This document shows, piece after piece, positions 1 through 18,740 of a DNA stretch of 64,000 bases. The translations under genes and the position numbers were made by a program. Positions within the stretch are counted from its first letter, which is position 1; each line of letters opens with the position of its first letter. Source of the stretch: Escherichia coli (GTDB lineage Bacteria; Pseudomonadota; Gammaproteobacteria; Enterobacterales; Enterobacteriaceae); the NCBI RefSeq assembly GCF_050320075.1, contig NZ_CP190018.1. One strand, given 5' to 3'. The notes under the pieces were generated by a model, which worked only from the letters and a program-made list of their open reading frames with translations, was not told the DNA's origin and did no database searches.

Positions 1-183
1 GCCCGCAGGCGCGTATTTACTATGCGGAAATGTTGGCGAAAATGAGTCGGTTACGTGAAGCCAACGAGCAGTATGTTGCCGTGGTTGATACGGCTAAACG
101 CTCAAGACCTCATTATAGAAAACACCACCGGGAATGGATTAAGACCGCCAATGAGCGGCTGAAGCAGAGTGTGGTGCAATGAA
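1..183 (+). CDS. 3' end of an unidentified gene running off the left edge (partial)
   Basis: Frame 3 is open from the window edge to TGA at 181-183 (about 60 codons, ...RIYYAEMLAKMSRLREANEQYVAVVDTAKRSRPHYRKHHREWIKTANERLKQSVVQ); the other two + frames are closed. No family recognised; it does not look like an ABC ATPase C-terminus. Confidence 0.3.
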
Positions 184-404
184 AATCTTCTTTGCCGTTA
201 GACCAGTGTCGCGGCAATCTTTTGTTAAAATTGAAAAATGTAGCTCTCATCGGGCAGCAAAACTGGACGCAGAATTTGCTGCCATTTTTGCTCTTCATGG
301 TAAGGAGTTCTGGCGATTAGCTGGCCGTTAATCGCCTCTTTTCAGTGCATTCTCGGGATATCCGTGCCCCATCTCCCATTTTCCCTCACCCGTACCGTCA
401 CCGC

Positions 405-485
405 CTTGTCATCTTTCTGACACCTTACTATCTTACAAATGTAACAAAAAAGTTATTTTTCTGTAATTCGAGCATGTCATGTTAC
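405..485 (+). promoter_or_regulatory. ugpB promoter region with array of PhoB-box-like heptamers
   Basis: Heptamers resembling CTGTCAT at ~11 bp spacing (ttgtcat 406-412, ctgacac 417-423, tgtaaca 440-446, ctgtaat 461-467, atgtcat 474-480) about 60-130 bp upstream of the ugpB start; the ugp operon is a known Pho regulon member. Confidence 0.5.
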
Positions 486-541
486 CCCGCGAGCATAAAA
501 CGCGTGAATTCGCGCATTCGGTACAACAAGAGAGATAAACG

Positions 542-1858
542 ATGAAACCGTTACATTATACAGCTTCAGCACTGGCGCTCGGACTGGCGTTAATGGGGAA
601 TGCACAGGCAGTGACGACCATTCCGTTCTGGCATTCTATGGAAGGGGAACTGGGTAAAGAGGTGGATTCTCTGGCCCAACGTTTTAACGCCGAAAACCCG
701 GATTACAAAATTGTACCGACCTATAAAGGCAACTACGAACAGAATTTAAGCGCGGGGATTGCCGCATTTCGTACCGGCAACGCGCCTGCTATTTTGCAGG
801 TTTATGAAGTTGGCACCGCCACCATGATGGCGTCGAAAGCCATTAAACCGGTATATGACGTGTTTAAAGAGGCGGGGATTCAGTTCGATGAGTCGCAGTT
901 TGTGCCGACGGTTTCAGGCTACTACTCCGACAGCAAAACCGGCCACTTACTCTCCCAGCCGTTCAACAGCTCGACTCCCGTTCTCTATTACAACAAAGAC
1001 GCCTTCAAGAAAGCCGGTTTAGACCCGGAACAGCCGCCGAAAACCTGGCAGGATCTGGCGGACTATGCCGCAAAACTGAAAGCCTCCGGTATGAAGTGCG
1101 GCTACGCCAGCGGCTGGCAGGGCTGGATCCAACTGGAAAACTTTAGCGCCTGGAACGGTCTGCCGTTTGCCAGCAAAAACAACGGCTTTGACGGCACAGA
1201 CGCGGTGCTGGAGTTCAACAAGCCGGAGCAGGTGAAACACATCGCTATGCTCGAAGAGATGAACAAGAAGGGCGATTTCAGCTACGTCGGGCGTAAGGAT
1301 GAATCCACTGAGAAGTTCTATAACGGTGATTGCGCGATGACCACCGCCTCTTCCGGTTCTCTCGCCAACATTCGCGAGTACGCCAAATTTAACTACGGCG
1401 TAGGCATGATGCCTTACGACGCCGATGCGAAAGATGCGCCACAAAACGCCATTATCGGCGGAGCCAGCTTGTGGGTAATGCAGGGTAAAGATAAAGAAAC
1501 TTATACGGGTGTGGCGAAGTTCCTCGACTTCCTCGCGAAGCCAGAAAACGCTGCCGAGTGGCATCAGAAAACTGGTTATCTGCCAATCACCAAAGCGGCG
1601 TATGACCTGACCCGTGAGCAGGGTTTTTATGAGAAAAACCCAGGGGCGGATACCGCGACGCGTCAGATGCTGAATAAGCCGCCGTTACCGTTCACCAAAG
1701 GGCTGCGTCTGGGCAACATGCCGCAGATCCGCGTGATTGTGGATGAAGAGCTGGAGAGCGTGTGGACCGGTAAGAAGACACCACAGCAGGCGCTGGATAC
1801 CGCCGTTGAGCGTGGGAACCAGTTACTGCGCCGCTTTGAGCAGTCTACGAAGTCTTAA
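542..1858 (+). CDS. ugpB: sn-glycerol-3-phosphate ABC transporter periplasmic binding protein
   Basis: 438 aa ORF with signal peptide ([23 protein letters not shown]); length and sequence match UgpB as recalled; followed by ugpAEC. Confidence 0.96.
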
Positions 1859-1864
1859 TTCTCT

Positions 1865-2010
1865 TACCCTCACCCTAACCCTCTCCCAAAGGGAGAGGGG
1901 ACCGATCGGCGTGGTATCCAGGTGCCGTGTCGGTTTGCAACTTCGCTCGGTGGGAAAGTATGCACCGCCTTTCTCCCTCGCCCCTTTGGGGAGAGGGCCG
2001 GGGTGAGGGG
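1865..2010. repeat. intergenic element with nested inverted repeats between ugpB and ugpA
   Basis: Left unit ccctcaccctaaccctctccc-aaa-gggagagggg (1865-1900) and right unit ccctcgcccctttggggagagggccggggtgagggg (1969-2010); each has a local hairpin and the outer arms are mutually inverted. Confidence 0.5.
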
Positions 2011-2033
2011 AACACAACACGAAGAGTTTAACT

Positions 2034-2921
2034 ATGTCATCATCCCGTCCGGTGTTCCGCTCGCGCTGGCTGCCCTATTTGCTGGTCGCGCCGCAGCTCA
2101 TTATCACCGTTATCTTTTTTATCTGGCCTGCGGGCGAAGCGTTGTGGTACTCGCTGCAAAGCGTCGATCCGTTTGGTTTCTCCAGCCAGTTTGTCGGCCT
2201 GGATAACTTCGTCGCGCTGTTTCATGACAGCTACTATCTCGACTCCTTCTGGACGACGATAAAATTCAGCACCTTTGTCACCGTCAGCGGTTTGCTGGTG
2301 TCGCTGTTCTTTGCGGCGCTGGTGGAGTACATCGTGCGCGGCAGCCGTTTCTATCAAACCTTAATGCTGCTGCCTTACGCCGTGGCACCCGCCGTTGCCG
2401 CCGTATTGTGGATCTTCCTGTTTAACCCTGGTCGCGGGCTGATCACCCATTTTCTCGCTGAGTTCGGCTACGACTGGAACCACGCGCAAAACAGCGGTCA
2501 GGCGATGTTTCTGGTGGTGTTTGCCTCGGTGTGGAAGCAAATTAGCTACAACTTTCTGTTCTTCTATGCCGCGCTGCAATCCATTCCCCGTTCGTTTATC
2601 GAAGCCGCAGCCATCGACGGTGCAGGCCCGATTCGCCGCTTCTTTAAGATTGCGCTGCCGCTTATCGCTCCGGTGAGTTTCTTCCTGCTGGTGGTGAACC
2701 TGGTGTACGCCTTCTTCGACACCTTCCCGGTGATCGACGCCGCCACGTCCGGCGGGCCGGTTCAGGCCACCACGACGCTGATTTATAAGATTTACCGCGA
2801 AGGCTTTACCGGACTGGATCTGGCTTCGTCTGCCGCGCAGTCGGTGGTGTTGATGTTCCTCGTCATCGTGCTGACGGTGGTGCAGTTCCGCTATGTTGAA
2901 AGCAAGGTGCGTTACCAATGA
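2034..2921 (+). CDS. ugpA: sn-glycerol-3-phosphate ABC transporter permease
   Basis: 295 aa multi-TM ORF; position and length match UgpA. Confidence 0.96.
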
Positions 2922-3763
2922 TTGAGAACCGTCCGTGGCTGACAATATTCAGCCATACCATGCTGATCCTCGGGATCGCGGTGATCCTCTTCCCGCTGTA
3001 CGTGGCGTTTGTCGCGGCGACGCTGGATAAACAGGCCGTCTACGCCGCGCCGATGACGCTAATCCCCGGCACACATCTGCTGGAAAACATCCACAACATC
3101 TGGGTGAACGGGGTAGGCACGAATAGTGCGCCTTTCTGGCGGATGTTGCTTAACAGCTTTGTGATGGCGTTCAGCATTACGCTCGGCAAAATTACCGTCT
3201 CGATGCTTTCGGCATTTGCCATTGTCTGGTTTCGTTTTCCGCTACGTAACCTCTTCTTCTGGATGATTTTTATCACTCTGATGTTGCCGGTTGAAGTGCG
3301 TATTTTCCCGACGGTGGAAGTGATCGCCAATCTGAAAATGCTCGACAGCTACGCCGGTTTAACGCTGCCGCTGATGGCCTCGGCGACCGCCACGTTTCTT
3401 TTCCGCCAGTTCTTTATGACGCTGCCGGATGAGCTGGTGGAAGCGGCGCGGATCGACGGTGCGTCACCAATGCGCTTCTTTTGCGACATCGTTTTTCCGC
3501 TCTCCAAAACTAATCTGGCGGCGCTGTTTGTGATCACCTTTATCTACGGCTGGAACCAGTATTTGTGGCCGTTGTTGATTATTACCGATGTGGATCTCGG
3601 CACCACCGTGGCAGGGATTAAAGGGATGATCGCCACTGGCGAAGGCACCACGGAATGGAACTCGGTGATGGCGGCGATGTTGTTAACGCTGATCCCTCCG
3701 GTGGTGATTGTTTTAGTGATGCAGCGTGCCTTTGTGCGCGGCCTGGTCGATAGTGAGAAATAA
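2918..3763 (+). CDS. ugpE: sn-glycerol-3-phosphate ABC transporter permease
   Basis: 281 aa multi-TM ORF; start overlaps ugpA stop (ATGA). Confidence 0.96.
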
Positions 3764-3764
3764 G

Positions 3765-4835
3765 ATGGCAGGACTGAAATTACAGGCAGTAACCAAAAGC
3801 TGGGATGGCAAAACCCAGGTCATTAAACCGCTGACCCTTGATGTGGCGGATGGCGAATTTATCGTGATGGTCGGGCCGTCTGGCTGCGGGAAATCGACGT
3901 TATTGCGAATGGTGGCCGGACTGGAGCGGGTAACGACGGGCGATATCTGGATCGACCGCAAGCGTGTCACCGAAATGGAGCCGAAAGATCGCGGGATTGC
4001 GATGGTGTTCCAGAACTACGCGCTCTATCCGCATATGAGCGTAGAGGAGAATATGGCGTGGGGGCTGAAAATTCGCGGCATGGGCAAGCAACAAATTGCC
4101 GAACGTGTTAAAGAAGCGGCGCGCATTCTGGAGCTGGACGGCCTGCTTAAGCGCCGCCCGCGTGAGTTATCTGGCGGTCAGCGTCAGCGTGTGGCGATGG
4201 GGCGTGCGATTGTGCGTGAGCCGGCAGTGTTCCTGTTTGATGAGCCGCTCTCTAACCTCGATGCCAAGTTGCGTGTGCAGATGCGTCTTGAACTGCAACA
4301 GCTGCACCGTCGCCTGAAAACGACTTCACTCTACGTTACCCACGATCAGGTTGAGGCGATGACGCTCGCCCAGCGAGTAATGGTGATGAACGGCGGCGTT
4401 GCCGAACAGATTGGCACGCCAGTTGAAGTGTACGAAAAGCCCGCCAGCCTGTTTGTGGCGAGTTTTATCGGCAGTCCGGCGATGAATCTGCTGGCAGGGC
4501 GTGTGAATAACGAAGGTACGCATTTCGAACTGGACGGCGGTATCGCGCTGCCGCTAAACGGTGGCTACCGTCAGTATGCTGGACGTAAAATGACTCTCGG
4601 CATTCGCCCGGAACATATTACGCTACGTTCGCAGGCTGAAGGTGGCGTGCCGCTGGTGATGGACACGCTGGAGATCCTCGGCGCAGATAACCTGGCGCAC
4701 GGACGCTGGGGCGAACAGAAGCTGGTGGTGCGACTGGCGCATCAGGAGCGCCCGACGGCAGGCAGCACGCTGTGGCTGCATCTGCCGGAAAATCAGCTGC
4801 ATCTTTTTGATGGTGAAACAGGACAACGAGTATGA
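3765..4835 (+). CDS. ugpC: sn-glycerol-3-phosphate ABC transporter ATP-binding protein
   Basis: 356 aa from ATG 3765 ([13 protein letters not shown]...); Walker [13 protein letters not shown] signature LSGGQRQR; ATG one nt after ugpE stop. Confidence 0.95.
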
Positions 4836-5575
4836 GTAACTGGCCTTATCCCCGCATCGTCGCCCATCGTGGCGGCGGTAAACTGGCCCCGGAGAACACC
4901 CTGGCAGCAATCGACGTCGGGGCAAAATACGGTCATAAGATGATCGAATTTGACGCGAAGTTATCGAAAGATGGCGAGATCTTCCTGCTCCATGACGACA
5001 ATCTTGAACGCACCAGCAACGGCTGGGGCGTCGCGGGCGATCTGAACTGGCAGGATTTACTGCGCGTGGATGCAGGCAGTTGGTACAGCAAAGCGTTTAA
5101 AGGTGAGCCGCTACCGTTGCTTTCGCAGGTGGCGGAACGCTGTCGCGAACACGGGATGATGGCGAATATCGAAATCAAACCCACCACTGGCACCGGGCCA
5201 TTAACGGGCAAAATGGTGGCGCTGGCGGCACGCGAACTGTGGGCCGATATGACGCCGCCGCTGCTGTCATCGTTTGAGATTGATGCTTTAGAAGCTGCAC
5301 AACAGGCTGCACCGGAACTGCCGCGCGGTTTGTTGTTGGATGAGTGGCGCGACGACTGGCGAGAACTGACCGCGCGACTGGGCTGCGTCTCTATTCATCT
5401 CAATCATAAGTTGCTTGATAAAGCGCGAGTGATGCAGTTGAAAGACGCCGGATTACGGATTCTGGTTTATACCGTCAATAAACCCCAGCGCGCGGCAGAG
5501 TTGCTGCGCTGGGGCGTGGATTGCATCTGCACCGATGCGATTGACGTGATTGGTCCGAACTTTACGGCCCAATAG
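4832..5575 (+). CDS. ugpQ: glycerophosphodiester phosphodiesterase
   Basis: 247 aa; start overlaps ugpC stop; length and sequence match UgpQ. Confidence 0.95.
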
Positions 5576-6002
5576 TTTTCAACGGAATATCAGGCTGCGG
5601 CGTGCTGGGCTGATTCAGCATGTCGCCGTTTCTCCTCTCCGGCAACATATGCTGCTGATTCAACGGACTATCCGGATTACGGTTGCTGTTTAACATCCCG
5701 CCGTTGGTGTTGGGCAGCATTTGCTGCCGGGCGGGATTTCGCTCCCCCGGCTGTGACTGCAACACCCGCTGAGAATTATTGTTGATCTGGTTTTCTAAAT
5801 GCTGCTGTTGCAACTGCGTTTGCGTTTTCAGTTGCTGATTCAGCATCCCTTTTTGCTGGATTTGCTGCGTTTGCATTTGAGTCTGCATCCGCTGCTGGCT
5901 GGGGATCTGATATCCCGGCTGGTTGGGGTTGTTCAGAGTATTAATGGGCTGTGCAAAGCCGACAAACGGCAGGAGTGCCGTCAAAAGCAGAAGTCGTTTC
6001 AT
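5562..6002 (-). CDS. yhhA: secreted Gln-rich protein YhhA
   Basis: 146 aa with signal peptide and Q-rich repeats; convergent with ugpQ, 3' ends overlap by 14 nt. Confidence 0.85.
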
Positions 6003-6121
6003 CGCGTATCCTCCTCTGAAGATATTCTTTAAGTTTACTCGCTTCCCGGCAAAACGATGATTAATTCAGAGTTATATACCAGGCTTAGCTGGGGTTGCCC
6101 CTTAATCTCTGGAGAATAACG

Positions 6122-7864
6122 ATGATAAAACCGACGTTTTTACGCCGGGTAGCCATTGCTGCTCTGCTCTCAGGAAGTTGTTTTAGCGCCGCCGCCGCGC
6201 CTCCTCCGCCACCTGTTTCTTATGGCGTGGAGGAAGATGTCTTCCATCCGGTACGCGCGAAACAGGGGATGGTGGCGTCTGTAGATGCTACTGCCACTCA
6301 GGTGGGCGTGGATATCCTCAAGGAGGGCGGGAATGCCGTTGATGCTGCCGTGGCGGTGGGCTACGCGCTGGCGGTAACGCATCCGCAGGCGGGGAATCTG
6401 GGCGGCGGTGGTTTTATGCTGATCCGCTCGAAAAATGGCAATACCACCGCTATCGATTTCCGCGAAATGGCACCCGCCAAAGCGACCCGCGATATGTTCC
6501 TTGATGATCAGGGTAACCCGGACAGCAAAAAATCACTCACTTCGCATCTGGCCTCCGGTACGCCCGGTACGGTAGCAGGTTTCTCGCTGGCGTTGGATAA
6601 ATACGGCACCATGCCGTTGAACAAAGTGGTGCAACCGGCGTTTAAACTGGCACGCGATGGTTTTATCGTTAACGACGCGTTGGCTGACGATCTCAAAACC
6701 TACGGTAGCGAAGTGTTGCCGAATCACGAAAACAGCAAGGCTATCTTCTGGAAAGAGGGCGCGCCGCTGAAAAAGGGCGACAAGCTGGTGCAGGCGAACC
6801 TGGCAAAGAGCCTGGAGATGATTGCCGAAAACGGCCCGGACGAATTCTACAAAGGCACGATAGCGGAACAGATTGCCCAGGAGATGCAGAAAAACGGTGG
6901 CTTGATCACTAAAGAAGATTTAGCGGCGTATAAAGCGGTCGAACGTACACCGATTAGCGGCGATTATCGCGGGTATCAGGTTTACTCCATGCCACCGCCA
7001 TCTTCCGGCGGGATCCATATCGTACAAATCCTCAATATTCTGGAAAACTTCGATATGAAGAAATACGGCTTTGGCAGCGCCGACGCGATGCAAATCATGG
7101 CAGAAGCTGAGAAATATGCCTACGCCGACCGCTCGGAATATCTTGGCGACCCGGATTTTGTCAAAGTTCCGTGGCAGGCGCTGACCAATAAAGCCTATGC
7201 CAAATCTATTGCCGATCAAATCGATATCAATAAAGCGAAGCCATCCAGCGAAATTCGCCCCGGCAAGCTTGCGCCTTATGAGAGTAATCAAACTACCCAT
7301 TACTCAGTGGTGGATAAAGACGGCAACGCGGTAGCGGTGACCTATACGCTGAACACCACCTTCGGGACGGGCATTGTCGCGGGCGAGAGCGGTATTCTGC
7401 TTAATAACCAGATGGATGATTTCTCCGCCAAACCTGGCGTACCGAACGTTTACGGGCTGGTGGGTGGTGACGCCAACGCGGTCGGGCCGAATAAACGCCC
7501 GCTGTCGTCGATGTCCCCAACCATTGTGGTGAAAGACGGTAAAACCTGGTTAGTGACTGGTAGCCCAGGCGGTAGCCGGATCATCACTACCGTGCTGCAA
7601 ATGGTGGTGAACAGCATCGATTATGGTATGAATGTCGCCGAAGCGACCAATGCACCGCGTTTCCACCATCAGTGGTTGCCGGACGAGCTGCGTGTCGAAA
7701 AAGGGTTTAGCCCGGATACGCTCAAGCTGCTGGAAGCAAAAGGTCAGAAAGTGGCGCTGAAAGAGGCGATGGGTAGTACACAAAGCATTATGGTTGGGCC
7801 GGACGGCGAGTTGTACGGCGCATCCGATCCGCGCTCGGTGGATGATTTAACGGCGGGTTATTAA
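6122..7864 (+). CDS. ggt: gamma-glutamyltranspeptidase
   Basis: 580 aa from ATG 6122 (MIKPTFLRRVAIAALLSG...); signal peptide; conserved TTHYSVVD autoprocessing region. Confidence 0.95.
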   Translation: MIKPTFLRRVAIAALLSGSCFSAAAAPPPPPVSYGVEEDVFHPVRAKQGMVASVDATATQVGVDILKEGGNAVDAAVAVGYALAVTHPQAGNLGGGGFMLIRSKNGNTTAIDFREMAPAKATRDMFLDDQGNPDSKKSLTSHLASGTPGTVAGFSLALDKYGTMPLNKVVQPAFKLARDGFIVNDALADDLKTYGSEVLPNHENSKAIFWKEGAPLKKGDKLVQANLAKSLEMIAENGPDEFYKGTIAEQIAQEMQKNGGLITKEDLAAYKAVERTPISGDYRGYQVYSMPPPSSGGIHIVQILNILENFDMKKYGFGSADAMQIMAEAEKYAYADRSEYLGDPDFVKVPWQALTNKAYAKSIADQIDINKAKPSSEIRPGKLAPYESNQTTHYSVVDKDGNAVAVTYTLNTTFGTGIVAGESGILLNNQMDDFSAKPGVPNVYGLVGGDANAVGPNKRPLSSMSPTIVVKDGKTWLVTGSPGGSRIITTVLQMVVNSIDYGMNVAEATNAPRFHHQWLPDELRVEKGFSPDTLKLLEAKGQKVALKEAMGSTQSIMVGPDGELYGASDPRSVDDLTAGY

Positions 7865-7870
7865 GGTTAG

Positions 7871-7900
7871 CGGCCCTCTTCGTGGGAAGAGGGCCGTATT
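7871..7900 (+). terminator. probable rho-independent terminator of ggt
   Basis: Hairpin cggccctcttc-gtgg-gaagagggccg immediately after the ggt stop, followed by tatt. Confidence 0.5.
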
Positions 7901-7929
7901 GTCAGGGCAAGCCGGGTAATGACTCCAAC

Positions 7930-8433
7930 TTACTGATAGTGTTTTATGTTCAGATAATGCCCGATGACTTTGTCATGCAGCTCCACCGATTTTGAGAACG
8001 ACAGTGACTTCCGTCCCAGCCTTGCCAGATGTTGTCTCAGATTCAGGTTATGTCGCTCAATGCGCTGAGTGTAACGCTTGCTGATTACGTGCAGCTTTCC
8101 CTTCAGGCGGGATTCATACAGCGGCCAGCCATCCGTCATCCATACCACGACCTCAAAGGCCGACAGCAGGCTCAGAAGACGCTCCAGTGTGGCCAGAGTG
8201 CGTTCACCGAAGACGTGCGCCACAACCGTCCTCCGTATCCTGTCATACGCGTAAAACAGCCAGCGCTGACGTGATTTAGCACCGACGTAGCCCCACTGTT
8301 CGTCCATTTCAGCGCAGACAATCACATCACTGCCCGGCTGTATGCGCGAGGTTACCGACTGCGGCCTGAGTTTTTTAAGTGACGTAAAATCGTGTTGAGG
8401 CCAACGCCCATAATGCGGGCGGTTGCCCGGCAT
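7930..8433 (-). CDS. insB: IS1 InsB (transposase C-terminal part, made as InsAB' by frameshift)
   Basis: 167 aa ORF in the -1 frame overlapping the insA 3' end; matches IS1 InsB. Confidence 0.92.
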
Positions 8434-8627
8434 CCAACACCATTCATGGCCATATCAATGATTTTCTGGTGTGTACCGGGTTGAGAAGCGGTGTAAGTGA
8501 ACTGCAGTTGCCATGTTTTACGGCAGTGAGAGCAGAGATAGCGCTGATGTCCGGCAGTACTTTTACCGTTACGCACCACGCCTTCAGTAGCTGAGCAGGA
8601 GGGACAACTGATGGAGATGGAAGCCAC
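8352..8627 (-). CDS. insA: IS1 InsA
   Basis: 91 aa [43 protein letters not shown]...; zinc-finger/HTH protein of IS1. Confidence 0.92.
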
Positions 8628-8655
8628 GGGAGCACCTCAAAAACACCATCATACA

Positions 8656-9114
8656 CTAAATCAGTAAGTTGGCACCATTACCGGTATTTGCGATAAGATG
8701 TTGACAGAGGATAAATTCATAACTAACAGTTAATGTTTCTGTATCCAGTTGATTTTCAATGATCTGATGATGAATAGCCGATAAAAAAGCGCCTCTTAGT
8801 TGTATATAATAATACTTTCCCCATCTACCAAATCTATTTATTCGATAGAAGTCAAATTCCATAAATAATTGTTCATTATTGTTAATGGAATTAATAAATA
8901 ATGGAGTGCTTTTATCAATTAATTTACAAAATGTTATACCATGAAACTGTGAACCAAGCCCCGTATTAGTAATACTATTTAAGAATGAGAATGTAAATAT
9001 TTCATCCTCATGCCCGCTCTGCCAGCGATTACCTGTAGACTCAGAAGTCCCACAACCTGCGGAGATGCTTCCTTGTTGTTCTCCCGTTACTGTCAGGTAA
9101 ACAATATTACTCAT
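8656..9114 (-). pseudogene. yhhZ: Hcp-family (type VI secretion tube protein-like) gene truncated by IS1; the last 9 codons and the stop lie inside IS1
   Basis: 152 aa ORF MSNIVYLTVTGEQQGSISAGC...HEDEIFTFSFLNSITNTG...ITFCKLIDKSTPLF has Hcp-type motifs; the reading frame crosses the IS1 boundary at 8682 and stops at 8656; AT-rich. The yhhZ symbol is by position, from memory. Confidence 0.65.
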
Positions 9115-9349
9115 CCATGAAAAGTCCTTTTATGGCATGCTATTTTATCAATGGCACTATTATGCTTGTTAATTGTTATTTATTTACTCCAGGAAATTGT
9201 AGGCGTATATATTAAAAAATAAAATATTACACTTTAGGACGTAATTATGAGGTAAATCTTATATATTTATTGGGAAAATAAATACATTAAAAGAAGGTAT
9301 GCCGATTTTGAATGACACCCTTTTTCCATCTCAGAAAAAGGGCACTATC

Positions 9350-9838
9350 TTACTTCACCCGCGCCATATAATACGCATCGACATATTCACCATTACGTAA
9401 TGCGTACTTCTTGCCAGTCCCTTCAATCTCAAATCCAAATTTTTTATAGACTTTAATTGCTGGCGCGTTATCGATGAACACCGTTAGCTCAATACGATCT
9501 ACCCGCAACCAGTTGTCGCACATTTCAATCATCTCTCGCATCAGGGCGCTGGCGACGCCGCGATTCTTCCAACGGGAGTCGACACAAATACCAAAATCTG
9601 CAACATGACTGCGGCGTGGGCGCTGTTGCACGTCAATGGTGAGATGGCCCACGACGTCTCCATCAATACAGGCGACGAGTTGCTTGATGCCGGGACGATC
9701 GGCGAGTCGCTCCTGCCACATATGATCGGAAGGATGAGGCACCTGTAGCGTGTTGCAATACACCTCCGGCTGGGCGTGAATCTGCCTGATGGCCTCGTAA
9801 TCGCGCGTTTCAGCATGGCGTATCACTATCTCACTCAT
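9350..9838 (-). CDS. yhhY: GNAT-family N-acetyltransferase
   Basis: 162 aa from ATG at 9838 (MSEIVIRHAETRDYEAIRQIH...); GNAT motif region RGVASALMREMIE. Confidence 0.9.
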   Translation of the reverse strand: MSEIVIRHAETRDYEAIRQIHAQPEVYCNTLQVPHPSDHMWQERLADRPGIKQLVACIDGDVVGHLTIDVQQRPRRSHVADFGICVDSRWKNRGVASALMREMIEMCDNWLRVDRIELTVFIDNAPAIKVYKKFGFEIEGTGKKYALRNGEYVDAYYMARVK

Positions 9839-9919
9839 TCCTTTGTCCTCTTTGGGGTAAATGTCCCTTTCAACATCATTGACTTTCAAATGCGAGTCAA
9901 ATGCATTTTTTTTGCAAAA

Positions 9920-9960
9920 AGTGTTGGACAAGTGCGAATGAGAATGATTATTATTGTCTT
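9920..9960 (+). promoter_or_regulatory. ryhB promoter with Fur box
   Basis: gcgaatgagaatgattattattg (about 9934-9956) matches the Fur-box consensus (gataatgataatcattatc) and overlaps the -10 region directly upstream of the ryhB start. Confidence 0.65.
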
Positions 9961-10050
9961 GCGATCAGGAAGACCCTCGCGGAGAACCTGAAAGCACGAC
10001 ATTGCTCACATTGCTTCCAGTATTACTTAGCCAGCCGGGTGCTGGCTTTT
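9961..10050 (+). ncRNA. ryhB: Fur-repressed small RNA RyhB
   Basis: Sequence gcgatcaggaagaccctcgcggagaacctgaaagcacgacattgctcacattgcttccagtattacttagccagccgggtgctggctttt matches RyhB as I recall it, ending in a terminator hairpin gccagccgggtgctggc plus T-run; sits between divergent yhhY and yhhX as in K-12. Confidence 0.9.
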
Positions 10051-10172
10051 TTTTTGATCTTTCGTTTTCAATTTATCCACGGGAAGTGCTTGTGTTCGTT
10101 ATGCGCACTCCAGTAGGAACCACGTCCGCTTTGCGCTAAGGTGTAAATAATCACCTTAAAAAGGACGAAATC

Positions 10173-11210
10173 ATGGTCATCAACTGCGCCTTTATTGGCT
10201 TCGGCAAAAGCACCACCCGTTACCATCTGCCGTATGTACTTAACCGCAAGGATAGCTGGCATGTCGCGCATATTTTTCGCCGCCATGCGAAGCCGGAAGA
10301 ACAGGCCCCCATTTACTCTCATATCCATTTCACCAGCGATCTCGACGAAGTACTAAACGATCCCGATGTTAAGCTGGTTGTGGTCTGCACCCATGCAGAC
10401 AGCCACTTCGAGTACGCGAAGCGCGCGCTGGAAGCCGGGAAAAATGTGCTGGTCGAAAAACCGTTCACCCCGACGCTTGCCCAGGCGAAGGAGCTGTTTG
10501 CGCTGGCGAAAAGCAAAGGACTGACCGTCACGCCGTATCAGAATCGTCGTTTTGATTCCTGCTTCCTGACAGCGAAAAAAGCGATTGAAAGTGGCAAGTT
10601 GGGAGAGATTGTCGAAGTGGAAAGCCATTTTGACTATTACCGCCCGGTGGCAGAAACCAAACCTGGGCTGCCGCAGGATGGCGCGTTCTATGGTCTTGGT
10701 GTGCATACGATGGACCAGATTATTTCTCTGTTCGGTCGCCCGGATCACGTCGCTTATGACATCCGCAGCCTGCGTAATAAAGCCAATCCTGACGACACCT
10801 TTGAAGCGCAGCTGTTTTATGGCGACCTGAAAGCCATCGTCAAAACCAGCCATCTGGTGAAAATCGATTATCCGAAATTTATCGTTCACGGTAAGAAAGG
10901 TTCGTTTATTAAATACGGTATCGACCAGCAGGAAACCAGCCTCAAGGCTAATATTATGCCGGGCGAACCGGGATTCGCAGCGGATGATTCGGTCGGTGTG
11001 CTGGAGTATGTCAATGACGAGGGTGTGACGGTCAGAGAAGAGATGAAGCCGGAGATGGGCGATTACGGGCGCGTTTATGATGCGTTGTATCAAACCATCA
11101 CCAACGGTGCGCCAAATTACGTCAAGGAATCTGAAGTTCTTACCAATCTGGAAATCCTTGAACGAGGATTTGAGCAAGCCTCTCCCTCCACAGTGACTCT
11201 CGCGAAGTAA
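10173..11210 (+). CDS. yhhX: Gfo/Idh/MocA-family oxidoreductase
   Basis: 345 aa; N-terminal Rossmann motif AFIGFGKS; length matches YhhX. Confidence 0.9.
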   Translation: MVINCAFIGFGKSTTRYHLPYVLNRKDSWHVAHIFRRHAKPEEQAPIYSHIHFTSDLDEVLNDPDVKLVVVCTHADSHFEYAKRALEAGKNVLVEKPFTPTLAQAKELFALAKSKGLTVTPYQNRRFDSCFLTAKKAIESGKLGEIVEVESHFDYYRPVAETKPGLPQDGAFYGLGVHTMDQIISLFGRPDHVAYDIRSLRNKANPDDTFEAQLFYGDLKAIVKTSHLVKIDYPKFIVHGKKGSFIKYGIDQQETSLKANIMPGEPGFAADDSVGVLEYVNDEGVTVREEMKPEMGDYGRVYDALYQTITNGAPNYVKESEVLTNLEILERGFEQASPSTVTLAK

Positions 11211-11332
11211 GTTTGATGGCCCCTCGAATAGTTCAATTTTTTTGAACAGAGGGGTCAATTTTCACCCTCTATCATCCCAGGCGGATCGGGTCCACACTAA
11301 GCCCATCGAAATCATTCAGGGGGCGAATAAAA

Positions 11333-12028
11333 ATGATCTACTTACGCAAAGCAAATGAACGTGGTCATGCAAATCATGGCTGGCTGGACTCCTGGCATAC
11401 TTTCTCTTTTGCCAACTATTACGATCCGAACTTTATGGGCTTCTCCGCGCTGCGCGTGATTAACGACGACGTGATTGAAGCAGGGCAGGGCTTCGGCACT
11501 CACCCGCATAAAGATATGGAAATTTTGACCTACGTGCTGGAAGGTACTGTTGAGCATCAGGACAGCATGGGCAATAAAGAGCAGGTTCCGGCGGGTGAGT
11601 TCCAGATTATGAGTGCGGGTACGGGTATTCGTCACTCAGAGTACAACCCAAGCAGCACCGAGCGTCTGCATCTGTATCAAATCTGGATCATGCCTGAAGA
11701 AAACGGTATTACGCCGCGTTATGAACAGCGTCGCTTCGATGCCGTACAGGGCAAACAGCTGGTGCTCTCGCCGGATGCGCGTGATGGTTCGCTGAAAGTG
11801 TATCAGGATATGGAACTGTACCGCTGGGCGCTGGTAAAAGATGAGCAGTCGGTGCATCAGATTGCCGCTGAACGCCGCGTCTGGATTCAGGTGGTGAAAG
11901 GCAATGTCACCATTAACGGCGTGAAAGCCTCGACCAGCGATGGTCTGGCAATCTGGGATGAGCAGGCAATCTCCATTCATGCGGATAGCGACAGCGAAGT
12001 GTTACTGTTCGATCTGCCGCCGGTTTAA
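11333..12028 (+). CDS. yhhW: pirin-like quercetin 2,3-dioxygenase
   Basis: 231 aa; cupin metal-binding motif GFGTHPHKDMEILTYVLEG; length matches YhhW. Confidence 0.9.
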   Translation: MIYLRKANERGHANHGWLDSWHTFSFANYYDPNFMGFSALRVINDDVIEAGQGFGTHPHKDMEILTYVLEGTVEHQDSMGNKEQVPAGEFQIMSAGTGIRHSEYNPSSTERLHLYQIWIMPEENGITPRYEQRRFDAVQGKQLVLSPDARDGSLKVYQDMELYRWALVKDEQSVHQIAAERRVWIQVVKGNVTINGVKASTSDGLAIWDEQAISIHADSDSEVLLFDLPPV

Positions 12029-12251
12029 AACTCAACGGCATCTTTGAAGCCTGCCTTTTTGCAGGCTTCCTCACTCGCTCCGGTCGCGTGCTGATGTACG
12101 CTTCCGGGGTTTTGCCGCGTCGTTAGCACAATGCGATGCAATTGATTTAGTGTATATCTAATAATTGTAAACAAGCACTGTTTTCCCCGGGAAGGTTCTG
12201 ATGCGTCCGTGTTAAACTAAGAGAATCTATCTCTTTTGTACCTTCAGGACG

Positions 12252-13247
12252 ATGAAAAAGAAAAGACCCGTACTTCAGGATGTGGCTGACCGTGTAGGCG
12301 TGACCAAAATGACGGTCAGCCGTTTTTTACGCAACCCGGAGCAGGTTTCCGTCGCTCTACGCGGCAAGATTGCCGCCGCTCTTGATGAACTGGGTTATAT
12401 TCCCAATCGCGCGCCCGATATCCTCTCTAATGCCACCAGCCGGGCGATTGGCGTCCTGTTACCTTCTCTCACCAACCAGGTTTTCGCGGAAGTATTACGC
12501 GGAATCGAAAGCGTCACCGACGCGCACGGTTATCAAACTATGCTGGCGCACTACGGTTATAAACCGGAAATGGAGCAAGAACGCCTCGAATCAATGCTCT
12601 CATGGAATATCGATGGACTGATCCTCACCGAACGTACCCACACGCCACGCACCTTAAAGATGATTGAAGTGGCGGGGATTCCGGTGGTGGAGTTGATGGA
12701 CAGCAAGTCGCCGTGCCTCGATATTGCCGTCGGTTTTGATAACTTTGAAGCGGCACGCCAGATGACCACCGCCATTATTGCTCGCGGGCATCGCCACATT
12801 GCCTATCTCGGCGCACGTCTCGACGAACGTACTATCATCAAACAGAAGGGATACGAACAGGCGATGCTGGATGCAGGCCTGGTGCCGTATAGCGTGATGG
12901 TTGAGCAATCTTCTTCTTACTCTTCCGGTATTGAACTGATTCGCCAGGCGAGGCGGGAATATCCGCAGCTGGATGGCGTGTTCTGTACTAATGATGACCT
13001 GGCGGTCGGCGCGGCGTTTGAATGCCAGCGTCTGGGGTTGAAAGTTCCTGACGATATGGCGATTGCCGGTTTCCATGGTCATGACATTGGTCAGGTGATG
13101 GAACCACGGTTGGCGAGCGTACTGACGCCGCGTGAGCGGATGGGCAGTATTGGCGCTGAACGCCTGCTGGCGCGTATTCGTGGCGAATCTGTGACACCGA
13201 AAATGTTAGATTTAGGTTTCACCTTGTCACCGGGCGGATCTATTTAA
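12252..13247 (+). CDS. gntR: gluconate operon repressor, LacI family
   Basis: 331 aa; N-terminal HTH LQDVADRVGVTKMTVSRFL; followed by gntK and gntU. Confidence 0.95.
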   Translation: MKKKRPVLQDVADRVGVTKMTVSRFLRNPEQVSVALRGKIAAALDELGYIPNRAPDILSNATSRAIGVLLPSLTNQVFAEVLRGIESVTDAHGYQTMLAHYGYKPEMEQERLESMLSWNIDGLILTERTHTPRTLKMIEVAGIPVVELMDSKSPCLDIAVGFDNFEAARQMTTAIIARGHRHIAYLGARLDERTIIKQKGYEQAMLDAGLVPYSVMVEQSSSYSSGIELIRQARREYPQLDGVFCTNDDLAVGAAFECQRLGLKVPDDMAIAGFHGHDIGQVMEPRLASVLTPRERMGSIGAERLLARIRGESVTPKMLDLGFTLSPGGSI

Positions 13248-13325
13248 GCCCACAAATTTGAAGTAGCTCACACTTATACACTTAAGGCACGGATGGATAT
13301 TGCTTCTGATATTGTCCGGCCGGAC

Positions 13326-13356
13326 AATGTTACCGATAACAGTTACCCGTAACATT
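13326..13356 (+). promoter_or_regulatory. tandem GntR operators in the gntK promoter
   Basis: aatgttaccgataacagttacccgtaacat contains two overlapping palindromes of the ATGTTACCxxTAACAT type about 30 bp upstream of the gntK start. Confidence 0.6.
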
Positions 13357-13385
13357 TTTATTTCTTGTATTGTGGGGGCACCACT

Positions 13386-13913
13386 TTGAGCACGACTAAC
13401 CATGATCACCACATTTACGTCTTGATGGGCGTATCGGGCAGCGGCAAATCTGCGGTCGCCAGTGAAGTGGCGCATCAACTTCATGCCGCGTTTCTTGATG
13501 GCGATTTCCTCCATCCAAGGCGCAATATCGAAAAAATGGCGTCTGGTGAACCGCTGAATGACGACGATCGCAAACCGTGGTTGCAGGCGCTGAACGACGC
13601 CGCGTTTGCTATGCAGCGCACCAATAAAGTGTCGCTGATCGTCTGTTCTGCACTGAAAAAACACTATCGCGACTTGCTGCGTGAAGGTAATCCGAATCTC
13701 TCGTTCATCTACCTGAAAGGCGATTTTGATGTGATTGAAAGCCGCCTGAAAGCGCGCAAAGGCCATTTCTTTAAAACCCAAATGTTGGTGACGCAGTTTG
13801 AAACGCTGCAGGAGCCGGGTGCGGACGAAACCGATGTACTGGTGGTGGATATCGATCAACCGCTGGAAGGTGTTGTGGCAAGCACCATTGAGGTTATTAA
13901 AAAAGGCAAATAA
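13386..13913 (+). CDS. gntK: gluconokinase
   Basis: 175 aa from TTG 13386 (STTNHDHHIYVLMGVSGSGKSAVA); P-loop GVSGSGKS. Confidence 0.92.
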   Translation: MSTTNHDHHIYVLMGVSGSGKSAVASEVAHQLHAAFLDGDFLHPRRNIEKMASGEPLNDDDRKPWLQALNDAAFAMQRTNKVSLIVCSALKKHYRDLLREGNPNLSFIYLKGDFDVIESRLKARKGHFFKTQMLVTQFETLQEPGADETDVLVVDIDQPLEGVVASTIEVIKKGK

Positions 13914-13916
13914 GTA

Positions 13917-15257
13917 GTGACTACATTAACGCTTGTTTTAACAGCAGTAGGGTCTGTTTTACTGCTGCTGTTTTTAGTCATGAAGGCGCGTATGCACGCT
14001 TTCCTGGCTTTGATGGTGGTGTCCATGGGGGCTGGCCTTTTTTCCGGTATGCCGCTCGATAAAATCGCAGCGACGATGGAAAAAGGGATGGGAGGCACCC
14101 TCGGCTTCCTGGCGGTGGTTGTCGCCCTGGGAGCTATGTTTGGCAAGATCTTACATGAAACCGGCGCAGTCGATCAGATTGCCGTCAAAATGCTCAAATC
14201 CTTCGGTCACAGCCGCGCGCATTATGCCATCGGCCTTGCGGGGCTGGTCTGTGCGCTACCGCTGTTCTTTGAAGTGGCGATTGTTCTGCTGATTAGCGTT
14301 GCTTTCTCAATGGCGCGCCACACCGGTACGAACCTGGTGAAGCTGGTAATCCCATTATTCGCAGGCGTGGCGGCCGCGGCTGCGTTCCTGGTGCCTGGAC
14401 CAGCGCCAATGCTGCTGGCATCGCAGATGAATGCCGACTTTGGCTGGATGATCCTGATTGGCCTGTGTGCGGCAATTCCGGGAATGATTATTGCCGGGCC
14501 GCTGTGGGGTAATTTCATCAGCCGCTACGTGGAGCTGCATATTCCTGACGACATCAGCGAACCACATCTCGGCGAAGGCAAAATGCCATCTTTCGGATTC
14601 AGCCTGTCGCTGATCCTGTTGCCGCTGGTGCTGGTAGGGCTGAAAACCATTGCCGCGCGTTTTGTGCCAGAAGGCTCTACCGCTTACGAATGGTTCGAGT
14701 TTATTGGTCATCCGTTTACCGCGATTCTGGTTGCTTGTCTGGTGGCGATTTATGGCCTGGCAATGCGTCAGGGCATGCCAAAAGACAAAGTGATGGAGAT
14801 TTGCGGTCACGCGCTGCAACCGGCGGGGATCATTCTGCTGGTGATTGGTGCAGGCGGCGTGTTCAAACAGGTGCTGGTTGACTCTGGCGTAGGTCCGGCA
14901 CTGGGCGAAGCGTTAACCGGCATGGGCCTGCCGATTGCCATCACCTGCTTCGTGCTGGCAGCTGCAGTGCGCATCATTCAGGGTTCTGCCACCGTTGCCT
15001 GTTTAACGGCGGTGGGACTGGTGATGCCGGTTATTGAACAACTGAACTACTCCGGTGCGCAAATGGCGGCGCTGTCGATTTGTATCGCCGGTGGTTCGAT
15101 TGTTGTCAGCCACGTTAACGACGCCGGTTTCTGGTTGTTCGGTAAATTTACCGGCGCGACCGAAGCCGAAACGCTGAAAACCTGGACCATGATGGAAACC
15201 ATACTCGGCACTGTTGGTGCCATCGTTGGGATGATTGCGTTCCAGCTGTTGAGTTAA
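13917..15257 (+). CDS. gntU: low-affinity gluconate:H+ symporter
   Basis: 446 aa from GTG 13917 (MTTLTLVLTAVGSVLLLLF...); GntP-family membrane protein; intact in this sequence. Confidence 0.92.
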   Translation: MTTLTLVLTAVGSVLLLLFLVMKARMHAFLALMVVSMGAGLFSGMPLDKIAATMEKGMGGTLGFLAVVVALGAMFGKILHETGAVDQIAVKMLKSFGHSRAHYAIGLAGLVCALPLFFEVAIVLLISVAFSMARHTGTNLVKLVIPLFAGVAAAAAFLVPGPAPMLLASQMNADFGWMILIGLCAAIPGMIIAGPLWGNFISRYVELHIPDDISEPHLGEGKMPSFGFSLSLILLPLVLVGLKTIAARFVPEGSTAYEWFEFIGHPFTAILVACLVAIYGLAMRQGMPKDKVMEICGHALQPAGIILLVIGAGGVFKQVLVDSGVGPALGEALTGMGLPIAITCFVLAAAVRIIQGSATVACLTAVGLVMPVIEQLNYSGAQMAALSICIAGGSIVVSHVNDAGFWLFGKFTGATEAETLKTWTMMETILGTVGAIVGMIAFQLLS

Positions 15258-15268
15258 TTACTGCGACA

Positions 15269-15296
15269 AATTACTGCGAGCTTGCTCGCAGTAATT
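15269..15296. promoter_or_regulatory. perfect 13-bp-arm palindrome at the gntU / insertion junction (terminator or operator)
   Basis: aattactgcgagc-tt-gctcgcagtaatt starts 12 nt after the gntU stop; preceded by a direct half-repeat ttactgcgac. Confidence 0.4.
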
Positions 15297-15396
15297 CATT
15301 TCTCTTATCTCCTCTCTTCATCTTTTTGATCTCTCTCGCAAATTTACCTGCTAATAATCCGTTCTAATCACTGCCTAAAGATCGCAGGAGATAAAG

Positions 15397-17493
15397 ATGG
15401 AAAAGCACGGAGCTGAATTGCTTTTACAGCGGATGTTAGGAAATACCACCGCTACTTTCAGGGAAGGGCAATGGGAAGCCATAGATGCAGTGGTTAATCA
15501 GCGGCGAAAACTGCTGGTTGTACAGCGCACCGGCTGGGGGAAAAGTGCCGTGTACTTCATCGCCAGTAAAATCTTCCGCGATCGCGGCGCTGGCCCGACA
15601 ATTATCATCTCTCCTTTGCTTGCCCTGATGCGTAACCAGGTTGCCGCCGCTGAACGGTTAGGTATTACGGCTGAAACGTTGAATTCTACAAACAGGGAAG
15701 AATGGCAGCGCATTAGCGATAAGTTGCTGCAAGGTGAGGTCGATTGCTTGCTGGTTTCCCCGGAACGTTTGGCAAACCAGGACTTTATCGAAACGGTTTT
15801 ATATCCTATAGCCGATCGTATTGGCTTGCTTGTGGTCGACGAGGCGCACTGCATCTCTGATTGGGGCCACGATTTTCGCCCGGATTACCGACGTATATTA
15901 GATATTTTGCGCCAACTGCCTGCGAATACCCCTGTTCTGGGTACAACCGCGACAGCGAATAACCGTGTTGTTGAGGATATCCGTCAGCAATTGGGTGACA
16001 TTGTGATTCAGCGTGGAACGCTGGCTCGCGAAAGTTTGGCGCTTGATGCCTTAGTCTTAGGAGAACAGTCATCCCGTCTGGCATGGTTAGCAACGGTTAT
16101 CCCTCAGTTTTCCAAATCGGGAATTGTTTATACCCTGACGACTCGCGATGCTGAACTTGTCGCCGAGTGGTTAAGGAAAAATGGTATCAGTGCATTTGCT
16201 TACTACAGCGGCGTGACTTGTGAAGGCGCGGAAGATTCTAATACTGCCAGGGAATATCTGGAGCAGGCACTGCTGGCAAATAAAATCAAAGTGCTGGTCG
16301 CGACGACGGCATTAGGTATGGGGTTTGATAAACCTGATTTAGGTTTCGTCATTCATTATCAGATGCCGGGGTCTATTGTCGGTTACTACCAACAGGTGGG
16401 GCGTGCCGGGCGTGCTATAGATTCCGCAGTTGGCATATTGCTTTGTGGTGGTGAAGACCGCGCTATTCATCAATTCTTCCGTGAAAGCGCCTTTCCTGCG
16501 GAGGCGCAAATTCATGAAATACTCAACGTACTTAGCGAGAATGACGGTCTTACCCTACGAGGCATTGAACAACGGACGAATCTTCGTTATGGGCAAATAG
16601 AAAAAGCACTGAAATTATTGGTAGCGGAAAATCCATCGCCTGTGGTGTATACCGAGAAATTATGGCGCAGAACTATCGTCAGTTTTTCTCCTGATCATGA
16701 ACGAATTAACCATTTGATGAATCAGAGAAAAAGTGAACTGGCAGACGTTGAAAGCTATATCACGACCAAGGAGTGCAAAATGCAATTTCTGCGCCGTGCA
16801 CTCGATGAGCCAAGTGCCGAACGTTGTGGTAAATGTAGCAGTTGTCTTCAGCATCCGTTATTGTCGCCCGACATTGATAGCGGCTTACTCCATGCGGCAA
16901 ATTTATTTATTAAACACGCTGACCTGCCGTTAAATCTCAATAAACAGGTGGCAGCTGGGGCTTTTACGCAATACGGATTTAAAGGGAACTTGCCTGCGGG
17001 TTTACAAGGATCTACGGGGCGAATCCTTTCTCGTTGGGGAGATTCCGGGTGGGGAAAGCAGGTAGCACAGGAGAAAAAAACGGGGCGCTTAAGTGATGAG
17101 CTGGTAGAAGCATGTGCGGAAATGGTTCGCCAACGCTGGAATCCGCATCCTGAACCAACCTGGGTATGCTGCGTTCCTTCATTAAGGCACCTCGACCTGG
17201 TTCCTGATTTTGCCCGGCGACTGGCGGCGAAACTTGGCTTACCTTTTATTGATGCCATTGAAAAAGTCGTGGACAATCCACCGCAGAAAATGCAGCAAAA
17301 CCGTTTTCACCAGTGTCAAAATCTCGACGGGGCGTTTGTGATTACCCCTCCTTTGATGCCAGGTCCGGCGTTGCTGGTTGACGATATCGTGGATTCTGCA
17401 TGGACGCTGACAGTTCTGACAGCACTGTTACGCCAGGCAGGTTGCCCGACGGTTTATCCTCTTGCCCTTGCTTCTACCTCGGTAAAAAATTGA
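15397..17493 (+). CDS. RecQ-family DEAH helicase with C-terminal CxxC and phosphoribosyltransferase-like domain (PsyrT/RqlH-like candidate toxin or effector)
   Basis: 698 aa; Walker A QRTGWGKSAV, DEAH box VVDEAHCISDWGHDFRPDYRR, helicase-C motif YQQVGRAGR, then CGKCSSC and a PRTase-type nucleotide loop LLVDDIVDSAWT near the C-terminus; SD gcaggag upstream of the ATG. Confidence 0.85.
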   Translation: MEKHGAELLLQRMLGNTTATFREGQWEAIDAVVNQRRKLLVVQRTGWGKSAVYFIASKIFRDRGAGPTIIISPLLALMRNQVAAAERLGITAETLNSTNREEWQRISDKLLQGEVDCLLVSPERLANQDFIETVLYPIADRIGLLVVDEAHCISDWGHDFRPDYRRILDILRQLPANTPVLGTTATANNRVVEDIRQQLGDIVIQRGTLARESLALDALVLGEQSSRLAWLATVIPQFSKSGIVYTLTTRDAELVAEWLRKNGISAFAYYSGVTCEGAEDSNTAREYLEQALLANKIKVLVATTALGMGFDKPDLGFVIHYQMPGSIVGYYQQVGRAGRAIDSAVGILLCGGEDRAIHQFFRESAFPAEAQIHEILNVLSENDGLTLRGIEQRTNLRYGQIEKALKLLVAENPSPVVYTEKLWRRTIVSFSPDHERINHLMNQRKSELADVESYITTKECKMQFLRRALDEPSAERCGKCSSCLQHPLLSPDIDSGLLHAANLFIKHADLPLNLNKQVAAGAFTQYGFKGNLPAGLQGSTGRILSRWGDSGWGKQVAQEKKTGRLSDELVEACAEMVRQRWNPHPEPTWVCCVPSLRHLDLVPDFARRLAAKLGLPFIDAIEKVVDNPPQKMQQNRFHQCQNLDGAFVITPPLMPGPALLVDDIVDSAWTLTVLTALLRQAGCPTVYPLALASTSVKN

Positions 17494-18695: not shown

Positions 18696-18698
18696 TAA

Positions 18699-18734: not shown

Positions 18735-18740
18735 TGAACC

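Follow-up and report, generated by a model that had tools for sequence, protein, structure and literature searches.

The locus examined here raises a simple question: what is the inverted-repeat element that fills the spacer between ugpB and ugpA in a 64,000-nucleotide (nt) stretch of Escherichia coli DNA (contig NZ_CP190018.1 of assembly GCF_050320075.1; the whole stretch is called the window below), and what might it do in the ugp operon? On the plus strand of the window, ugpB, encoding the periplasmic sn-glycerol-3-phosphate binding protein of 438 amino acids (542-1858, with the TAA stop codon at 1856-1858), is followed by ugpA, encoding a permease subunit of 295 amino acids (2034-2921). 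Coordinates of both genes are taken from a list of open reading frames (ORFs), and their names from the PGAP annotation of genomes that are 100% identical here. According to the sequence and the ORF list, the intercistronic spacer comprises 175 nt (1859-2033, plus strand). An earlier note, made from the sequence alone, had described a nested inverted-repeat element in this spacer and had likened it to a dispersed intergenic repeat family of E. coli, which it could not name. The sequence is as described there, and the inverted units were recovered by a repeat search. The family can now be named as BoxC, also known as PIT or TMECO, and the element, judged by its sequence, is almost certainly an inverted pair of BoxC repeats. 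Our best explanation for the locus as a whole, to which we assign a probability of roughly 0.6, is that a BoxC inverted pair, in which a type A unit is joined by a type B unit, would act here like a pair of REP repeats, which holds the same slot in most E. coli genomes.

Early sources on BoxC repeats are reportedly the work of Bergler in 1992 and of Bachellier in the 1990s. In 2000, Hoyne and Maher came upon the BoxC family of the 1990s again and called it the PIT element, and Holder et al. gave it the further name TMECO (PMC4666352). The published TMECO pattern, 5'-CCCTCNCCC-N3-6-GGGNGAGGG-N3-GGGNGAGGG-3' (Holder et al. 2015, PMC4666352), has exactly two matches in the 64-kb window, one at 1867-1899 on the minus strand and one at 1975-2009 on the plus strand, and 0 matches to the unit patterns are expected in shuffled versions of the window. 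Because of this expectation, and because the spacer folds with a z score of about -5 (see below), we regard the element as beyond chance. Units with the loop TTA are defined as type A and those with the loop CCG as type B (Holder et al. 2015, PMC4666352). The left unit, which reads CCCTCACCC-TAA-CCCTCTCCC-AAA-GGGAGAGGG on the plus strand and CCCTCTCCC-TTT-GGGAGAGGG-TTA-GGGTGAGGG on the minus strand, matches the published pattern exactly and is of type A by its second loop, TTA. The right unit, CCCTCGCCCC-TTT-GGGGAGAGGG-CCG-GGGTGAGGG, also matches the pattern exactly, has one mismatch in its own stem, and is of type B by its loop CCG; together with G2010 it is identical to TMECO no. 3 of K-12 (Table 1, PMC4666352).

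The geometry given by the earlier note was largely accurate. It had placed two inverted, G/C-rich units about 110 bp apart, each with its own local hairpin; the distance is 108 nt from start to start, and the hairpins comprise a perfect 9 bp in the left unit (CCCTCTCCC-AAA-GGGAGAGGG, 1879-1899 on the plus strand, with arms 1879-1887 and 1891-1899 and -16.8 kcal/mol as RNA) and 10 bp with one mismatch in the right unit. The unit length of about 40 bp did not hold, as the units measure 33-36 nt by the published definition. In the inverted-repeat search, the arms extend over 42 nt, are 74% complementary, and are separated by 75 nt.

Other features of the family are also found at this locus. blastn matches to the spacer occur in 5385 of 5426 complete E. 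coli genomes, at a median of 12 places per genome, and the BoxC copies that we examined are all intergenic, which bears out the dispersed family that had been suspected. All five inverted pairs of K-12 join one type A with one type B unit (PMC4666352), and the same A+B pairing was seen in 10/10 divergent pairs that we examined. The outer GGGTGAGGG/CCCTCACCC segments of the two units in the window point away from each other, making the layout divergent. In K-12, four of the five pairs have the convergent layout instead, with GGGTGAGGG directed inward; only the pair at lldD-trmL (TMECO 17 and 18) shares the layout of the ugp pair, with type A on the minus strand followed by type B on the plus strand. 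A divergent pair is also present at phnL-phnK in strains ACN002 and ST2747, and the K-12 list includes units that stand singly as well as those in convergent pairs. The ugp pair further differs from the pairs of K-12 in the distance between its units (75 nt versus 16-59 nt), and the ugp locus of K-12 itself has no BoxC.

Each unit is accompanied by an inner flank of about 20-25 nt. For type A units, this flank follows the unit and reads GACCGnTCGGCG...GTAT; for type B units, it precedes the unit and reads ...TTTCT. In the window, the GACCGATCGGCGTGGTATCCAGG-like flank of the type A unit occupies 1900-1925 on the plus strand, with blastn matches elsewhere reaching position 1925, and its motif recurs behind the type A units of dolP-yraQ, lldD-trmL, and pepA-holC. 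The flank of the type B unit (...CACCGCCTTTCT) occupies 1955-1974 on the plus strand, with blastn matches elsewhere beginning at position 1955, and nearly all pairs have a TTTCT motif ahead of their type B unit. We take the flank at 1900-1925 to be part of a longer BoxC repeat, and the inner flanks of both units fit the BoxC consensus length of about 56 bp that is listed in PMC2267715. Between the flanks lies a locus-specific core (1926-1954, plus strand) with small local stems, which has no counterpart at other BoxC pairs in the alignment; among the ugp, lldD-trmL, and phnL-phnK pairs the core is variable and the ends are conserved. The exact string of the left unit was not found among the listed members of Holder's 823 TMECOs from 56 strains (PMC4666352), and the ugp locus is therefore probably outside that catalogue, at least as far as its listed members go. 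The BoxC family is already published, as are the two unit types and the inverted pairing, and the ugpB-ugpA pair is a new member at the level of the locus; as a genome feature, it is an unremarkable copy of a repeat that is already known.

The position of the pair in the operon is precise. It is 144 bp long, begins 8 nt past the ugpB stop codon, ends 24 nt ahead of the ugpA ATG, and takes up the whole slot between the stop codon and the ribosome-binding site of ugpA, where we read a Shine-Dalgarno-like AAGAG (2022-2026, plus strand) 7 nt ahead of the ATG. In E. coli, two alleles account for nearly all occupants of this slot: the 175-nt BoxC-pair spacer is present in 317 of the 5426 complete genomes (5.8%) and a 97-nt REP-pair spacer in 5105 (94.1%), including K-12 MG1655, in which the 97 nt carry two inverted REP units (a BIME). 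The alleles differ from just past the ugpB stop codon to about 25 nt ahead of the ugpA ATG, and the flanks are colinear with K-12, with identities of 97.5% and 95.7% and no local divergence peak. Within the literature searched, this two-allele state at ugpB-ugpA appears to be unreported. REP copies were located with a consensus pattern instead of blastn; one REP unit of the K-12 spacer fits the consensus (K-12 locus L001, 5938-5962), and two more fits lie upstream of ugpB. With blastn, the K-12 REP spacer was found at a median of 3 places per genome, a low count probably because short REP matches miss the E-value cut-off in a database of 28 Gb. The REP consensus core, reportedly given by Stern et al. 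in 1984, is GATGCG...CTTATC[CA]GGCCTAC; a pattern search of 1859-2033 gave no match to the REP consensus. The sole exact match to the core in the window is located at 33647-33671 on the minus strand (GATGCGCTACGCTTATCAGGCCTAC).

A rare third state of the slot is seen in E. coli FDAARGOS_1286 (L090, 3101-4236), in which a frameshifted IS110-family transposase gene directly follows ugpB, ugpA is no longer adjacent, and the match to the K-12 spacer ends within the REP pair. IS110-family elements such as IS621 target REPs.

The last 18 nt of ugpB (region 1838-1858) carry three substitutions relative to other Escherichia, so that the protein ends in ...FEQSTKS versus ...FEKSTKS. Two of the three match the state in Enterobacter, Pluralibacter, and Superficieibacter, and the CAG codon is common to these genera and Leclercia. 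The substitutions weakly suggest the edge of a short imported patch; the inference is weak because the surrounding 12 kb are already about 4% diverged from another E. coli. The window is about 96% identical to E. coli K56-43-un over 359-12029 (ugp-ggt-yhhX) and 98.6% identical over 12188-21178, and the BoxC allele therefore lies within a broader divergent haplotype block. Two further differences from K-12 were seen in the neighborhood. Within ugpC (ORF 3726-4835), positions 3834-4233 are only 89-90% identical to K-12, compared with 94-99% on either side, which suggests a recombination mosaic in the sequence of this gene. Between livF and ugpB, the window (1-182; also L089, 3778-4524) holds the 3' end of a gene for a tetratricopeptide-repeat protein, which K-12 lacks at livF-ugpB; K-12 has two REP units there, and its homology to the window begins at 359.

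We scanned one genome per species with UgpA, which gave 80 loci, and extracted the ugpB-ugpA spacers. A divergent BoxC pair is present at this position in at least six other enterobacterial species, belonging to as many genera: a Pseudocitrobacter metagenome-assembled genome (MAG; 123 nt), Pluralibacter sp. (167 nt), Kluyvera genomosp. 1 (218 nt), Superficieibacter electus (308 nt), strain RIT691 (130 nt), and Enterobacter cloacae DSM 26481 (129 nt). REP-pair spacers of 97-107 nt are found in Escherichia albertii, the E. coli representative, Pseudocitrobacter faecalis, three Citrobacter, Pseudescherichia vulneris, Escherichia sp. ESNIH1, a soil MAG, Cedecea, and Enterobacter sp. R1. Enterobacter BIGb0383 and Pluralibacter gergoviae have spacers of 72 and 80 nt, respectively, collapsed to a single hairpin. 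In Leclercia adecarboxylata (L017, 2346-2500; 155 nt), one type A BoxC unit is situated between two REPs of a BIME, and this hybrid could be an intermediate between the two spacer types. In every BoxC pair at ugpB-ugpA, the left unit is of type A and the right unit of type B. In Kluyvera (L014, 2283-2500) and Superficieibacter (L018, 2193-2500), the interior of the pair, consisting of inner flank, core, and a degenerate hairpin, is tandemly duplicated.

The two types of spacer also differ in how they end. REP spacers end with a ribosome-binding region such as CAGTTCAGGAATTAAC and most BoxC spacers with a different, AGAGTTTAACT-like one, the final AGAGTTTAACT being identical in the window and Kluyvera; when spacer ends were compared between species, the AAGAG version of the site was seen to accompany BoxC-type spacers. 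The elements begin 8-14 nt past the stop codon, and, apart from RIT691 with 40 nt, the BoxC spacers leave about 21-29 nt for the ribosome-binding site. A neighbor-joining tree of ugpA followed taxonomy, with the spacer types interspersed; the window clusters with K-12, as do the two Pseudocitrobacter genomes with each other despite their unlike spacer types. The slot has thus switched its occupant several times between flanking genes that have remained typical of their species. The recurrence of REP and BoxC states across genera also appears to be unreported within the literature that we searched.

As RNA, the spacer has a predicted minimum free energy (MFE) of -86.8 kcal/mol, compared with -64 kcal/mol for dinucleotide shuffles (two runs gave z = -4.9 and -5.5; 0/200 shuffles were as good). 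In the MFE structure, the two units pair with each other to form an interrupted, G/C-rich long-range stem of about 30 bp (1867-2009, plus strand), with helices of 10, 9, 6, and 5 bp (1867-1876/2000-2009, 1879-1887/1989-1997, 1888-1893/1982-1987, and 1895-1899/1975-1979) and with the TAA and CCG loops opposed in a 2x2 internal loop. Pair probabilities are about 1.0 for the first five pairs of 1879-1887/1989-1997 and decrease to 0.27 at the inner end of this helix. The earlier note had suggested that the element could fold into alternative RNA structures that set the ratio of ugpB to permease expression. Both folds are indeed possible, but the balance between them is not what this would require: when pairs are limited to a span of 45 nt, the energy is -69.2 kcal/mol, 17.6 kcal/mol worse than that of the long stem, and the left local hairpin has an equilibrium probability of 0.001. 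In the folding model, there is no balanced switch between the folds at equilibrium.

The long stem is also predicted in other species. For 7 orthologous BoxC spacers, RNAalifold gave this stem as the consensus fold; all 7 sequences retain the outer 19 pairs, and in two of them one outer-stem position is altered on both sides (A-U to U-A). Structure in the slot is widespread across species: among 74 orthologous spacers, many of which have no sequence relationship, the median z score is -3.3, and 74% have z < -2; the REP allele of K-12 has a z score of -7.9. No sigma-70 promoter-like site was detected in the spacer by a promoter scan, and a scan of the spacer for a hairpin followed by a T-run gave no intrinsic terminator, the sequence after the stem being GAACACAACACG. 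The BoxC pair is thus neither a promoter nor an intrinsic terminator as judged by these scans. Among the Rfam covariance models, the best scores in 1500-2400 were 15-20 bits, compared with gathering scores of 37-168; CRISPR-DR20, whalefall-1, and MIR1437 were sub-threshold matches that we attribute to chance. A helix between CUCUU (1861-1865) and AAGAG (2022-2026), which would mask the Shine-Dalgarno sequence of ugpA, was present in the MFE structure of the bare spacer, disappeared when 47 nt of ugpA were added, and was not consistent by eye in orthologous spacers; we dropped it as a mechanism. Three small ORFs over the spacer (1737-2006 on the plus strand, 1823-2020 on the minus strand, and 1922-2206 on the plus strand) were treated as spurious, and PGAP annotates none of them in identical genomes.

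How might such a stem act? The precedents are REP pairs at junctions between binding-protein and permease genes, of which the malE-malF case is reportedly due to Newbury et al. in 1987 and the hisJ-hisQ case to Stern et al. in 1988. REP sequences shield transcripts from 3' exonucleolytic decay (PMC10100675). By analogy, we propose that transcription of the ugp operon passes through the spacer, that the two BoxC units would pair in the ugp mRNA as the interrupted stem of about 30 bp, and that this stem would block 3'-to-5' exonucleases as REP pairs do at these junctions; it could also serve as a processing site. The ugpB segment would then outlast the distal ugpAECQ segment, and the binding protein would be made in excess over the membrane subunits. 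That the stem of the BoxC pair is an intercistronic hairpin barrier protecting the ugpB message is, on this analogy, a real possibility that falls somewhat short of probable. A simpler version of the ratio idea of the earlier note, in which a stable intercistronic hairpin uncouples ugpB from the permease genes, is plausible because the alternative allele is a REP pair and because the orthologous spacers are mostly structured.

The likeness to REP pairs, including those at malE-malF, at hisJ-hisQ, and at ugpB-ugpA of K-12, extends to several features. In ugp, slot and operon are the same; both elements are inverted pairs of a dispersed palindromic repeat that start about 8-10 nt past the stop codon, and their folding energies per nucleotide are nearly equal (-0.50 kcal/mol/nt for BoxC and -0.51 kcal/mol/nt for REP). 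The sequences, in contrast, are unrelated, and the role of REPs in mRNA decay has experimental support, whereas that of BoxC is proposed by analogy. We found no locus-specific literature on REP function at ugpB-ugpA. REPs have partners (RAYT transposases, gyrase, and insertion sequence targeting), and we know of none for BoxC.

Several points weigh against a role of the BoxC allele in the mRNA, which is proposed from a predicted fold and from the REP analogy. The allele is found in just 5.8% of genomes, so the BoxC pair is not required. A stem 8 nt past the stop codon could lower ugpB expression instead of protecting it, and REPs near stop codons reportedly lower expression, as described by Liang, Rudd and Deutscher in 2015. 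The presence of structure in the orthologous spacers could just mean that palindromic repeats are tolerated there, and the both-sides change in the outer stem may reflect a species-wide family consensus, not selection for pairing. According to the summary in PMC4666352, single PIT/BoxC units showed neither promoter nor terminator activity and no effect on RNA polymerase in earlier experiments. Holder et al. (2015, PMC4666352) also saw no tie between TMECO units and gene function or position.

We give a substantial minority chance to the strongest alternative: the pair may be a neutral or selfish repeat, of a family whose copies spread or are swapped by recombination, that persists where an intergenic slot tolerates it, with the RNA structure as a by-product of its palindromes. 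The low frequency of the allele in E. coli (5.8%) is in keeping with such a repeat, and BoxC loci are unusually variable between strains, with no function found since the 1990s (PMC4666352). The remnants in Enterobacter BIGb0383 and Pluralibacter gergoviae indicate that the element can collapse, and the slot also takes REPs and, in one genome, an IS110-family element. Against mere tolerance, however, none of the Enterobacteriaceae spacers that we examined is without a palindromic element, and even the two collapsed remnants retain a hairpin; where one such element is missing, another takes its place. Significant structure in 74% of the 74 orthologous spacers likewise argues for more than a by-product, as does the tight placement of the element, which begins 8-14 nt past the stop codon and leaves little beyond the ribosome-binding site.

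An action at the level of DNA is unlikely. According to this explanation, a triplex of the G-rich strand, or a cruciform formed by the pair in single-stranded DNA, stalls replication or repair, and local instability is the main effect. Oligonucleotides of TMECO types A and B fold in vitro into stable purine-motif intrastrand triplexes, and rearrangement is greater at TMECO loci than at controls (PMC4666352); the right unit of the pair is identical to K-12 TMECO no. 3. The same study, however, reports in vivo dimethyl sulfate (DMS) footprinting that did not support a stable triplex, and double-stranded TMECO stays duplex (PMC4666352). The ugp locus is polymorphic, and the core is duplicated in Kluyvera and Superficieibacter, as instability would predict, but within E. 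coli the polymorphism consists of two clean alleles (317 + 5105 of 5426) with no spread of deletions, and the flanks remain colinear with K-12 and lack a local divergence peak.

It is very unlikely that the units are the terminal inverted repeats of a miniature inverted-repeat transposable element (MITE) moved by some transposase. The pair has the appearance of one, with 144 bp, inverted ends of 42 nt, and membership in a dispersed family, and its non-random A+B pairing (10/10 pairs here and 5/5 in K-12) could be read in this way. It shares with MITEs, and with the ERIC/IRU, RSA, and YPAL repeats, that it is small, intergenic, and dispersed, has inverted ends, and folds as RNA. Target-site duplications speak otherwise: 8/9 pairs are without a convincing one (7 have none of at least 3 nt, and one has a 3-mer), and the remaining pair, in E. 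cloacae DSM 26481 (L044, 1105-1233), is flanked with small offsets by the 7-nt direct repeat AAAACCT, which may be due to chance. The core varies from locus to locus, some units stand singly or in convergent pairs, and at ugp the BoxC pair replaces the REP pair and is not added to it. The lack of a consistent target-site duplication, the variable core, and the lack of an Rfam match also set the element apart from the ERIC/IRU, RSA, and YPAL families, although the ERIC and RSA consensus sequences were not compared directly. Holder et al. (2015, PMC4666352) saw no link between BoxC and mobile elements.

Least likely of all is a riboswitch-like toggle, in which the local hairpins compete with the long-range pairing to set the ratio of ugpB to permease, since, although both folds can form and the left local hairpin (-16.8 kcal/mol) would arise first during transcription, the long stem is 17.6 kcal/mol more stable and leaves that hairpin a probability of 0.001, Rfam gave no ligand-binding or other known RNA family, and the core between the units is conserved across neither loci nor species.

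Returning to the explanation that we prefer, a BoxC pair that would act like a REP pair, the comparison between species allows a broader and more tentative version, which we consider doubtful: BoxC and REP pairs may serve the same function, the slot being selected for a strong hairpin and, across Enterobacteriaceae, refilled several times by short-patch recombination, with each repeat family bringing its own version of the ribosome-binding site. If true, this would give BoxC, a classic small repeat family of E. coli that has no accepted function, its first physiological role after about 30 years, as an intercistronic mRNA stabilizer or processing site. The ugpB-ugpA spacer is a natural allele pair in one species (BoxC in ~6% and REP in ~94%) that makes the function of BoxC directly testable. 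Should mRNA decay and the UgpB:UgpA ratio prove alike for the two alleles, BoxC and REP pairs would count as RNA hairpin modules that can stand in for each other; should they prove unlike, the polymorphism would be a candidate for explaining how strains differ in the physiology of phosphate starvation.

Two observations concern the wider distribution of BoxC. Copies are located inside or at the end of the pst, phn (twice), and ugp operons, namely, at pstA-pstB and 3' of phnP in K-12 (Table S2 of Holder et al. 2015), at phnL-phnK (L003/L004, 2501-2610), and at 1867-2009 of the window; pst, phn, and ugp are all three of the large PhoB-controlled operons. BoxC has no visible similarity to the PhoB box. 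In K-12, 2/18 BoxC loci are in Pho operons, which comprise roughly 1% of genes, a count made post hoc and without statistics. The second observation concerns the recA-recX spacer, for which Holder's K-12 list has no BoxC; in some strains, among them E. coli M6 (L086, 1520-1554), this spacer carries a solo type A unit.

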